Source: Candidatus Altimarinota bacterium (GTDB lineage: Bacteria; Patescibacteriota; Gracilibacteria; UBA4473). From it: 64,000 nucleotides of DNA. The position numbers and the translations under genes are program-made. Under the pieces are notes generated by a model that had not been told where the DNA came from, made no database searches, and saw nothing but the letters and a program-made list of their open reading frames with translations. This document shows, one piece after another, positions 13,931-31,047 of the stretch. The stretch spans positions 1,152,001 to 1,216,000 of the forward strand of contig OZ246423.1 in assembly GCA_965231215.1 (NCBI GenBank). The letters run 5' to 3'. Every line of letters begins with the position of its first letter. The stretch's first letter is position 1.

Positions 13931-14006
13931 TGGAGCGCGTGATGGGAATCGAACCCATATCCGCGGCTTGGAAGGCCGAAATAATAAGCCATTATACTAC
14001 ACGCGC
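13931..14006 (-). tRNA. tRNA-Gly (anticodon TCC)
   Basis: 76 nt; acceptor stem GCGCGTG/CACGCGC, anticodon loop CTTCCAA, T-loop TTCGATT, encoded CCA. Confidence 0.97.
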
Positions 14007-28240: not shown

Positions 28241-29230
28241 TTATTGTCCAGATTGCTCACGGGCTTTGGTGGCTATCTGGCTCGCAATGGTTTTAATTTT
28301 ATCTGTAAGGGTTTGGTTTTTATCATTTAAATTAAAGCTCTCATCGGCTAAATTCCAGGCCTGTTTGCTCGTAGCGATAACTTCTTCAATTCGTCCTTCA
28401 CTACCAGCGATATAAGCGCCAGTGATATTTTTAAGAGCTTTTACAACTTTATCGGCAGAAAGGACAATACTATTCTGGGGAAGAAGCTCTAAAGCATAGG
28501 TAGAAAACTTCTCAGCAATAGAAACCAGCACTGCAGCGGTTCCAATCTCTTGTTTTTCAATAAATTCAATACTTTTGATTAGGTGAATTTCGGCCAAATT
28601 AAGCAAGGTTTGAGGGTTAAGCCCTTTGCCTTGTCTCAGCATAGAAAAAATAAGGTCAGCAGCCTCGCCTCGGGTCAGCTCTTTGCCTGGATGTATATTG
28701 TTATCTTGATCTGGGGTGACGATCTTGTATTTAACCGCAAACTTTAGGTAAGGGGCAAACCAAATATCATCTGGTACATCACTGATAGGTACCTCTCCTA
28801 ATTCGTATTGAGTAGGATCAATTTCAAAGCTGAGCATAAGCATTTTTATAAACTCCGCTTTATTAACGGTTCTGCCTGGAGCGAAATTTCCAGTCGTAGA
28901 GTCACCAGAAACAATTCCTAGAGTGGCTGCATGATTTATGAAAGGCGCGAACCAAATGTCCTTTGGGACATCAGCAAATTTTGTTTCAGTAGCTTCCTCG
29001 GCTTCAATTTCCGCCGCAATAAGAATTATTTTAAGTGATTCAGCTCTGTTAATCAGCTTGTCTCGTCCAAAAGAACCATCGTCATAGCCTTTGAAGATAC
29101 TATGTTGTTCAAGATAGGTTGTAGCTGGATAAAATTCATCCTGAATATTAATATCAGTGAAGGCAAAAACACTGGTTGGAGAAACTAAAAAAGTGAAGAT
29201 TATGAGTTGTTTGAAGTAAGGCTTATTCAT
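28241..29230 (-). CDS. S-layer homology domain protein (3 SLH plus helical C-terminus)
   Basis: Signal peptide; GYDDGSF...INRAE, FADVP..WF, VNKAEF, LTRGEAA. Confidence 0.88.
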   Translation of the reverse strand: MNKPYFKQLIIFTFLVSPTSVFAFTDINIQDEFYPATTYLEQHSIFKGYDDGSFGRDKLINRAESLKIILIAAEIEAEEATETKFADVPKDIWFAPFINHAATLGIVSGDSTTGNFAPGRTVNKAEFIKMLMLSFEIDPTQYELGEVPISDVPDDIWFAPYLKFAVKYKIVTPDQDNNIHPGKELTRGEAADLIFSMLRQGKGLNPQTLLNLAEIHLIKSIEFIEKQEIGTAAVLVSIAEKFSTYALELLPQNSIVLSADKVVKALKNITGAYIAGSEGRIEEVIATSKQAWNLADESFNLNDKNQTLTDKIKTIASQIATKAREQSGQ

Positions 29231-29412
29231 CTATTAACCATTTTTTAAATTTGGCTCACAAACGCAAGTTCTTTTGAACACAAAAATTGTTTGCGTTCCA
29301 AAAATTTGTACTACAAAAAAGTCTTTAATACAGTCTTAATCTGTGTTTTAGGCTTGTTTTTATAATAAAAACAATATTGCCGTTTTGCAAGTTGAATTTG
29401 TAAAGTCAAAAA

Positions 29413-30017
29413 ACTCCATAAGTGTTTTATGAAGTCATAAAGCGAAGCAGGAGCGGATGGCTATCTGGTTCTCAGTTTATTTTGAGTGATAAGCTACCGC
29501 CCCCTACTTCTGTAGGTAACTAGCCTACAATAACTCTCGCCTTGCTTTGGTGCCAATAACCGATGCACCTCCGGGGTTCATAATGCTTTCTCCTTATTTT
29601 TGACTAAAAGTCAGAAATAGAGTAGAATGCGAACCAAGAAAATTTGAACCACACAAAACGTTAGTGGTTGGCATAAAAGGCATTTCATTCTGGAATGTCT
29701 TTAGTCTAAGACTAGCGTTTTATTCTCAACCGTTTTGTGAGGGGATCTTGTTCGTAGTTTCAGGCGAACAAAACCTCGTCGCAGAGCGGAGAGAGGGAAG
29801 AAAGCGTTGAAAGATTCTCGAGTAGTCCGATAAAAAATATATGTTTTGGACTTGAGAAGCTTTGTGCCACTTCCTTTCCTCTCTCCGGGGGATTAATCGT
29901 TTCTGTAAAAGATCTACTTCCTGTCTCGTTTTGGGCCGTTCCTTTCTGGTGTGAATCACTGCTTTTTTGTTTTGATTTGTGAAGCGAAGTGTTCAGAGCA
30001 TTTTATCCAGGAAGGGG
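29413..30017 (+). ncRNA. Candidate large structured non-coding RNA of unknown family
   Basis: No credible ORF; about ten helices, e.g. 29787-29800/29874-29887 (14 bp), 29595-29605/29609-29619, 29676-29686/29692-29702, 29941-29949/30007-30015; mismatches are mostly G-U on the + strand. Confidence 0.65.
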
Positions 30018-30309
30018 GTTGTTGTCAAAACTTTTTATCTAGGAAACCCGAAAATGCCTTGTTTAAGCCGAAAACAATAAAAGACATTCTATCTTAAATA
30101 TTTTAAATATATAATTAAAAGCATGCTGGAACGTCGAATTTCAGCGTTAATTAAAAGCATTTTTCGAACGCGTACTAGGTTTGTACGCTTATCTCCACAA
30201 TTTTTTAATTGCCTTGAACTTCTTGTCCCAACTCACTTTTATTCTAGGAGGTCTTGTTATTTATTGTTAGGTTCTTAGAATTTTGCTAATTTTTGATTCA
30301 TAAAAATAT

Positions 30310-31047
30310 ATGGCTGGGCATAGTAAGTGGAAGCAAATTAAGCATAAGAAGGCGGCAAATGATGCGGCTCGAGGGAAAATTTTGACTAAACATGCCAAGA
30401 TTTTAGCAGTTGTAGGACGTAATGATCCTAATCCAGATACCAATCGGTCACTGAGAACCGCTATTACCAATGCTAAAGCTGATGGTGTCCCTAAAGACAA
30501 TATAGAAAGAACGCTTAAAAAACTTAGTGGAGAGGGGCCTGATGCGGTAGTCTATACAGAAAATGTATATGAAGGGTTTGGGCCTGATGGAGTGCCCTTT
30601 ATGGTGATGAGTCTTACCGATAACACCAATAGAGCTTATACCGATATCCGCAACGCCTTTAATAAAAATGGGGGAAATTTAGGATCTACTGGCTCAGTGG
30701 CTTTTATGTTTGATCATGTGGGAGTGATTTCATTCGATCTTTTAGGAAAGAACGAAGATGAGGTTTTTGAAATGGTAGCTTCAGCCGGAGGGGAGGACTT
30801 TGTGATAGAAGATAATATTGTGGAGGTTACGACTAGTTTTGAAGATTTGGGCAAGGTGCGTCAGGCACTAGAAGATCAGAAAATTGAGATTAGAAAATCA
30901 GAACCTATATATAAAGCTAAAGATCCGGTAAAGATTTCGGATACTACCGTACTGAAAAAAATAGAGGATTTTGTTGAGGCTGTAGAAGCGGTGGATGATA
31001 CCGATGAAGTTTTTGGTGGGTTTATTGTAGGGGATAATTTATTATAG
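30310..31047 (+). CDS. yebC: YebC/PmpR family protein
   Basis: MAGHSKWKQIKHKK, YEGFGP, TDN.NR, GGNLG..GSV.FMF. Confidence 0.95.
   Translation: MAGHSKWKQIKHKKAANDAARGKILTKHAKILAVVGRNDPNPDTNRSLRTAITNAKADGVPKDNIERTLKKLSGEGPDAVVYTENVYEGFGPDGVPFMVMSLTDNTNRAYTDIRNAFNKNGGNLGSTGSVAFMFDHVGVISFDLLGKNEDEVFEMVASAGGEDFVIEDNIVEVTTSFEDLGKVRQALEDQKIEIRKSEPIYKAKDPVKISDTTVLKKIEDFVEAVEAVDDTDEVFGGFIVGDNLL

Follow-up and report, generated by a model that had tools for sequence, protein, structure and literature searches.

An intergenic gap of 1079 nt (29231–30309) in Candidatus Altimarinota bacterium, a member of the Candidate Phyla Radiation (CPR), whose RNA biology is nearly unexplored, reads as the stand-alone gene of a large, structured non-coding RNA that belongs to a previously undescribed family. 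The RNA is most likely encoded on the minus strand with a length of ~590 nt, a reading to which we assign a probability of roughly 0.6. The gap lies in a stretch of 64,000 nt (G000:C1:1152001-1216000, hereafter the window, in whose coordinates positions are given unless a contig or locus is named) within a single-contig genome of 1.33 Mb that is 99.3% complete, and is flanked by an SLH-domain gene (28241–29230, minus strand) and yebC (30310–31047, plus strand). The element is conserved among relatives, its helices covary, promoter and terminator signals accompany it, it lacks coding potential and no neighbouring gene stays fixed beside it.

A sequence-only reading of the window had pointed to a 1.08-kb gap with a GC-richer core and had proposed a large structured RNA there, for which it asked for folding energies against dinucleotide shuffles. 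Both points held: the G+C content is 0.41–0.44 over the core (29400–29999) versus 0.275–0.33 on either side, and 29413–30017 folds at −209.1 kcal/mol on the plus strand (z −6.85) and at −170.4 kcal/mol on the minus strand (z −5.23), with none of 20 shuffles as good on either strand. A protein-coding reading of the core was rejected, as its open reading frames are all short (29664–29810, plus strand, 48 aa; 29726–29959, minus strand, 77 aa), indels among relatives are arbitrary in length and not in threes, and block lengths vary.

In the mechanism that we propose, the minus-strand RNA would start at ~29993 under the control of a consensus sigma-70 promoter preceded by an A/T-rich tract (30000–30040), and would end past the long H1–H3 hairpin, near a U6 tract at 29408. 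It would fold into a conserved core of at least 10 helices and one pseudoknot, with two near-invariant motifs able to pair with each other and with expansion hairpins whose length varies between lineages. The predicted main transcript (29405–29994, minus strand, ~590 nt), with ends placed 6–8 nt below the −10 element and at the U6 tract, folds at −168 kcal/mol (z −4.76), a value reached by none of 100 shuffles.

Transcription signals on the minus strand

At its right end, the element carries a sigma-70 type promoter on the minus strand (30000–30028), comprising TTGACA (30028–30023), a 17-nt spacer and TAAAAT (30005–30000), with 11 of 12 consensus matches. The motif was present in 28 of 41 copies of the element (24 strict and 4 loose), with 5–6 of the 13 misses cut by contig ends, and the promoter scan also reported a minus-strand promoter at loci L046 and L081. 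In the strict copies the spacer was invariably 17 nt long and its sequence was not conserved, indicating that the right end of the element is a promoter and not an RNA helix. The helix previously drawn across 29939–30017 thus loses its right part to the promoter.

Directly upstream of the −35 element lies an A/T-rich, putatively UP-element-like tract (AAAAAGTTT, 30029–30040, minus strand), which is conserved as TGTCAAAACTTTT in relatives. The strict promoter motif occurs at 4 sites in the 1.33-Mb genome, the element locus among them. Another of these sites, at G000:C1:855240 (L111 ~4041, minus strand), reads AAAAAAGTTTTGACA-17-TAAGAT and lies ~390 nt upstream of the 16S rRNA gene (L111 2178–3653, minus strand), so that AAAAAAGTTTTGACA likewise precedes that gene. 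Because the promoter is of rRNA grade, the RNA is probably abundant, and we infer that it would be both abundant and stable. The two remaining strict sites, TTGACA-17-TATAAT on the minus strand at G000:C1:144077 and C1:58428, overlap an inverted repeat, TTAGCACTC-N9-GACTGCTAA, which we take to resemble the CIRCE/HrcA operator.

At the far end, a weak terminator-like site (29408–29431, minus strand) consists of CAUAA-loop-UUAUG, GAG and then U6, below the thresholds of the scan; at the equivalent far end in L046 the scan reported a minus-strand terminator with 6 pairs and U7. Beyond it, a promoter-like site for the SLH-domain gene (29362–29390, minus strand, TTGCAA-17-TATTAT) matches the consensus at 9 of 12 positions, giving a minus-strand order of promoter, RNA, weak hairpin with U6, promoter-like site and SLH gene. 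Just upstream of the start of the SLH-domain gene, a separate block (29245–29318) is 78–94% conserved within the same genus only and is probably a leader or regulatory region of that gene.

No conserved plus-strand promoter was found upstream of H1, either in the scan of the window or in relatives. The TTGCCG-18-TAAAGT element that the sequence-only reading had offered as the promoter was not reported by the scan and is not conserved. In several relatives the plus-strand terminator of a neighbouring gene abuts H1, leaving no room there for a plus-strand promoter.

Helices, motifs and a pseudoknot

A covariance model of the left domain was built from 8 sequences (R1) and rebuilt from 28 (R2), and covariation was measured on a 41-sequence alignment fitted to R2. 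Both sides change in 26 of the 28 modelled pairs. Standard pairs form in 88.9% of cells, as against 58.4% with partners shuffled and 31–51% with partners slid by 1–3 columns, and the covariation score is 0.683 versus 0.171 (0 of 500 shuffles reach 0.683), values that come from an alignment fitted to the model structure and hence biased towards it. The structure is nevertheless supported, because folds of single sequences agree for the left hairpin and for hairpin P9: all 18 of 18 relatives adopt an identical long-hairpin shape in the former, and 34 of 37 fold the latter into a single hairpin that has 8 or more pairs and a stem of differing sequence. On a MAFFT alignment, pair counts for P9 came to 306 of 472 cells with inconsistent registers, and the single-sequence folds were used instead; RNAalifold on the raw MAFFT alignment recovered three helices only.

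The left domain opens with the long hairpin (29444–29510), composed of H1 (29444–47/29507–10), H2 (29450–56/29497–503 and 29458–65/29488–96) and H3 (29471–75/29482–86). Both sides change in 18 of 18 modelled pairs of H1–H3, and the hairpin encloses a conserved purine-rich internal loop. It is followed by H4 (29512–29528), a hairpin of 5 bp whose 7-nt loop is conserved (YWACYAG on the plus strand), in which GC, AU, CG and UA pair types are all found at 4 of the 5 pairs. Motif 1 (29533–29550, ACTCTCGCCTTGCTTTGG) is near-invariant and, allowing up to 3 mismatches, unique in the genome save for one unrelated near-match.

H5 (29549–53/29565–69) and the triplet that follows it form a predicted H-type pseudoknot (29549–29574), in which CCG at 29560–62 in the H5 loop pairs with CGG at 29572–74. 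The two triplets covary through four forms, namely CCG/CGG, CUG/CAG (L081, L093, L096, L098 and L106), CGG/CCG (L094) and UCG/CGA (L101). H6 (29575–29635) has an outer stem, GGUUC (29575–79) with GAACC (29631–35), around a variable hairpin, and this stem covaries by eye (GGUUC/GAACC, UGCUC/GAGCA, UGCCU/AGGCA and AAUCC/GGAUU). Further to the right, the long-range helix P7 (29652–29739) pairs CACAAAACG (29652–60) with CGUUUUGUG (29731–39) and in long forms encloses H8 (29679–84/29694–99) and H9 (29702–06/29710–14). P7 covaries as well, for instance to CCGUAAAAC/GUUUUACGG in L051. In short variants, for example L093, it is reduced to a simple stem-loop. The P9 hairpin (29741–29777) combines GGGG (29741–44) with CCUC (29774–77) and UUGUUCG (29748–54) with CGAACAA (29765–71) around a conserved loop, GURGUUUAGGC.

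Motif 2 (29777–29794, CGTCGCAGAGCGGAGAGA) is near-invariant and largely complementary to motif 1. Pairable cells between the two motifs amount to 90.1%, compared with 87.8% for shuffled partners (0 of 1000 shuffles reach 90.1%), and 5 sequences show compensatory changes from CG to UA, affecting 2 positions. Motif 2 includes GGAGAG, which doubles as the base of P10 (29788–29886), a long variable hairpin of the form GGAGAGAGGGAAG ... CUUCC(UUU)CCUCUCUCC that is present in relatives with differing length and sequence, and P10 thus competes with motif 1 for GGAGAG. As GGAGAG could pair with motif 1 or with the 3′ strand of P10 but not with both at once, a folding switch is possible.

Right of P10, a conserved AAAGATC with a palindromic GATC core (29908–29914) is also seen in relatives. 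The P12 hairpin (29953–29994) pairs GAAUCACU (29953–60) with AGUGUUC (29988–94) and would be the first hairpin of the minus-strand transcript. It covaries to GAAGAUCUU/AAGACUUC in G003 and takes long perfect versions in L102 and L107.

Several helices proposed in the sequence-only reading are recovered in relatives: GGTGC/GCACC (29549–53/29565–69) covaries as H5, the pairing at 29676–29702 (GGCAUU/AAUGUC) is supported, the hairpin at 29738–29778 corresponds to P9, and the 100-nt hairpin (29788–29886) is kept at variable length as P10. The TAGTC/GACTA helix is seen only in near relatives. Two pairings were replaced. Instead of the enclosing helix 29439–53/29534–48, relatives pair GAAG (29444–47) with CUUC (29507–10) around the long hairpin, and in place of AACCAC/GTGGTT they support CACAAAACG with CGUUUUGUG, that is, P7.

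Distribution and searches for a known origin

By blastn, the element was found in 12 of 43 genomes of its own family and in none of 24 other sampled families. R2 reached further, matching 29 of the 43 family genomes and 18 of 25 genera with 1–3 copies each (two matches in 8 genomes and three in one); genome G013 scored zero only since contig ends cut both its copies. In a class-wide sample, R2 matched 8 of 15 family members, and the 135 genomes drawn from 33 further families all lacked a match. These homologues, with the compensatory changes described above, bear out the earlier proposal of a stand-alone large structured RNA in CPR. A pattern made from the most conserved motif, scanned over 185,579 species with one genome per species, returned 14 loci. 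The element accounts for 12 of them, 10 from records whose titles name Candidatus Peribacteria, Gracilibacteria or Altimarinota and 2 from records titled 'bacterium'; the other 2 (Halomonas and Planctomycetota) have no match to the covariance model and were set aside as chance hits. A scan of metagenomes gave 10 loci, mostly duplicates.

Among relatives, the distance from the left end to the −10 element ranges from ~300 to ~730 nt, and the expansion hairpins are missing from the short forms. Neighbours vary too: the genus and two others (G018 and G015) are alone in retaining the SLH and yebC genes, and elsewhere different genes flank the element in different orientations, which argues that it is a gene of its own and not a leader and makes the suggested link to the fibre/SLH locus doubtful. 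In G028, a unit of 856 nt is duplicated at 94.7% identity and spans exactly from the minus-strand terminator reported in L046 to the tract upstream of the promoter, in keeping with a minus-strand gene.

Two further arrangements were observed among the copies. L057 (G015:C10) holds a tandem partial duplication with two copies ~430 nt apart, in which copy A comprises a left domain, a central domain and a short P10 and is directly followed by copy B, which has the sole minus-strand promoter. The short variants L093, L091, L108 and L109, from three genera, carry an extra conserved block, TTTTATTGTATAACTTTTTGATTCAAAAAA, and then a small hairpin; the block lies ~20–110 nt beyond the minus-strand promoter and in G032 is part of a duplicated unit of 446 nt.

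We compared the element with the 4227 families of Rfam 15 (including OLE, ROOL, GOLLD, HEARO, raiA, group I and II introns and T-box), taking the gathering score as the criterion. The whole window gave 2 tRNAs and nothing else, and 10 homologous loci gave no match. With E up to 10, 29200–30320 returned 9 matches, the best at E 0.65 and all far under their cut-offs (top score 20.3 bits versus a cut-off of 67), and the short variant searched with E up to 1 gave a single match at chance level (18.5 bits). ARAGORN found two tRNAs in the window and no tmRNA, and the tRNA genes nearest to the element lie at 13931 and 38277.

An origin from phages or plasmids was rejected, as blastn found no match in 50,697 phage and 72,556 plasmid records, and so was a viral one, with 0 pattern matches in viral contigs. 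Within the genome, nhmmer returned the locus itself and no second copy, and motif searches with up to 3 mismatches gave no convincing complementary target. No account of the element was found in the abstracts and text passages searched on Peribacteria, Gracilibacteria, CPR and large non-coding RNAs. In the 2026 preprint 10.64898/2026.10.21.760802, a search for Patescibacteria, Gracilibacteria, Peribacter and ornate found 0 occurrences, and the passages covered of PMC4736985 make no mention of non-coding or intergenic RNA.

Strand, alternative readings and related systems

The strand was assigned to plus in the sequence-only reading. That part is now doubtful, as the conserved rRNA-grade promoter and the terminators point to the minus strand, and the evidence from wobble pairs and composition is mixed. 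Several observations weigh against the minus strand or against parts of our reading. The plus strand has more G than C in every copy measured, and its central and right part is the more stable in 27 of 27 copies (mean −127.5 versus −101.4 kcal/mol), with composition-corrected z-scores that are close (−5.33 for plus and −4.68 for minus). In the central part, a strand-symmetric count of stems gave 157 G-U to 54 A-C on the plus strand, where shuffles gave ~85:48. A plus-strand pattern, TTGAC[AT]-N16-18-[TG]AnnnT, stands at an equivalent internal place in 21 of 39 copies and is missing from the short forms. The window copy's own minus-strand terminator is weak and unreported by the scan, the covariation alignment leans towards its model as stated above, and the function that we assign to the RNA is pure inference.

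Taken across the family, the wobble statistics do not settle the strand. The stem count is level elsewhere (28:27 in the left domain and 74:59 in the right part, G-U to A-C), and the modelled helices hold 44 G-U versus 49 A-C, at odds with the earlier statement that imperfect pairs are mostly G-U on the plus strand. In its z-scores, too, the left domain does not favour plus (−3.30 versus −3.22 for minus). Comparison of energy z-scores between the strands came to 21 versus 20 for the left domain and 15 versus 12 for the rest, and P10 hairpin energies to 20 versus 16 with a noisy choice of segment. Counts of tetraloops are uninformative on the strand: for GNRA they were 3 of 94 on plus and 1 of 94 on minus, and for UNCG 0 and 3 of 94, respectively.

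An alternative in line with the sequence-only reading is a functional RNA running from ~29440 to ~30000 on the plus strand, the minus-strand promoter then serving something else or an antisense RNA. The G excess, the folding energies, the central G-U excess and the better z-score of the window copy on plus (−6.85 versus −5.23) all favour such an RNA, as does the internal loop at H3, which is purine-rich on the plus strand (AGAA/UGA), a common type of RNA motif. We nonetheless consider it unlikely: no conserved promoter stands upstream of H1, where a gene's terminator intrudes in several relatives, H1/H2 followed by U4–5 would terminate the transcript 70 nt in, the scan reported no plus-strand terminator after the right end, and the left domain leans to neither strand. 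In another reading, the locus would be transcribed convergently: a full-length RNA from the minus strand would overlap an RNA from the plus strand that starts at ~29636 and is antisense to the first ~360 nt of the former, a sense/antisense control system like that of ColE1 RNA II and RNA I. The plus-strand RNA would arise from the internal promoter-like site within H6 (29600–29628, plus strand, TTGACT-17-TAGAAT, 10 of 12 consensus matches), which faces the minus-strand promoter. Both promoter-like sites keep their positions (28 of 41 and 21 of 39 copies), the scan reports the internal one in L046 and L081 too and hence both sites in three genera in all, the plus-strand G-U excess is found only downstream of the internal site, and short variants lack that site. 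However, the genome holds 32 matches to the loose internal pattern on one strand and 50 on the other, near a rough chance estimate, no plus-strand terminator was found, and the element is chromosomal and was not found in the plasmid and phage collections searched. The H6 outer stem also covaries across the internal site, so that some RNA must span it. We hold this arrangement to be rather improbable, a little more so than a plus-strand RNA.

Two other explanations fare far worse. A long cis-acting leader, either a 5′ untranslated region or riboswitch-like, of the SLH gene on the minus strand or of yebC on the plus strand would fit the genus, G018 and G015, where the next gene is the SLH-domain gene on minus and yebC on plus. 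It is very hard to reconcile with the differing neighbours and orientations of other genera, with genomes that hold 2–3 copies in unrelated contexts, and with the terminator-like and separate promoter-like sites between the element and both genes. A disguised housekeeping RNA (signal recognition particle (SRP) RNA, RNase P, tmRNA or 6S) draws on the lack of any detected SRP RNA in the genome, and we regard it as scarcely credible. RNase P RNA (RF00010, C1:725861-726229, 168.6 bits), tmRNA (RF00023, C1:1136036-1136470, 98 bits) and a 6S-like RNA (RF00013, C1:402334-402492, minus strand, 42.3 bits, just below the 46.4 cut-off) sit elsewhere, and multiple copies in short and long forms are unlike a universal RNA. 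As for SRP RNA, neither RF00169 nor RF01854 matched anywhere in the genome, and none is expected there because the genome encodes no SRP_SPB/Ffh M domain (PF02978) and no SRP54-type GTPase domain (PF00448, a model that would cover both Ffh and FtsY). RF00169 also matched none of 61 genomes (this one and 60 relatives) across 24 families of the class, some of them without the element, and the controls for the SRP searches were positive in 12–14 of 14 known genomes. With these domains and RF00169 not found, a disguised SRP RNA is not a sensible reading.

Two observations arose beside these searches. A TTGACC-17-TAAATT site ends 5 nt before the predicted start of the 6S-like RNA. The whole SRP pathway is seemingly absent from this 99.3% complete genome; by the RF00169 searches (0 of 61) its RNA would be missing from the relatives as well, and the protein domains were not found in G000. 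This is a surprise separate from the element.

For the minus-strand RNA that we favour, the rRNA-grade promoter, the retention across the family, the size-variant paralogues with one core, the near-invariant unpaired motifs with the pseudoknot and the lack of a fixed partner gene would fit an abundant RNA that acts in trans. By analogy with OLE, ROOL and GOLLD, it may form the structural or catalytic core of a particle and not the leader of a neighbour. Going further, we tentatively picture an RNA machine specific to one CPR family, driven by an rRNA-type promoter and built on a conserved ~300-nt core that holds the pseudoknot and the two mutually pairing motifs, with lineage-specific expansions and with long paralogues alongside short ones. 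It would contain its own antisense promoter and a GGAGAG switch between two states, and might be a new ribozyme or ribonucleoprotein core replacing a function lost by reduced genomes; we consider this picture, taken whole, unlikely but worth stating. The occurrence in nature of both minimal (~300 nt) and expanded (~730 nt) versions, the covariation and the pseudoknot make the element suited to structure determination and to the search for partners, and the convergent internal promoter-like site and the competing pairings are testable regulatory features.

Compared with known systems, the element shares parts of several. ColE1 RNA II is a structured RNA of ~550 nt with a strong promoter and an internal convergent promoter that yields the antisense RNA I. 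The element also has a strong promoter and a convergent internal promoter-like site, antisense to its 5′ part, but it is chromosomal, lies among housekeeping genes with no replication genes nearby, and has an antisense transcript that is a prediction. With genes for stable RNAs it has in common the promoter, since TTGACA-17-TAnnAT and the AAAAAGTTT tract recur at the site ~390 nt upstream of the 16S rRNA gene, whereas the models of rRNA, tRNA, RNase P, tmRNA and 6S RNA all fail to match its product.

Large, intricately folded RNAs are rare in bacteria, and each class (RNase P, OLE, GOLLD and ROOL) has led to new biochemistry or a new RNA architecture. OLE RNA, which ranges over the Firmicutes, resembles the element in its ~600 nt, many covarying helices, near-invariant unpaired motifs, narrow taxonomic range and stand-alone gene. 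By contrast, the element has no Rfam match, a CPR host, no conserved partner gene adjoining it and 1–3 copies in short and long forms. ROOL and GOLLD are likewise large ornate bacterial RNAs of unknown biochemical role and are associated with phage and tRNA genes, whereas the element has no match in Rfam or among phages, plasmids or viral contigs and does not adjoin tRNA genes. High expression of OLE RNA is reported in the abstract of PMC3413148, and that of PMC12286853 describes ROOL and GOLLD as RNA-only homo-oligomers; we speculate that the conserved palindromic GAUC of the element could similarly mediate self-association. The comparison with OLE, ROOL and GOLLD is one of analogy only, since the element falls outside each of these families. 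Judged by its sequence features (more than 300 nt, many covarying helices, non-coding, stand-alone and present across genera), it belongs with them to the large ornate bacterial non-coding RNAs, a descriptive kind and not a homologous family.

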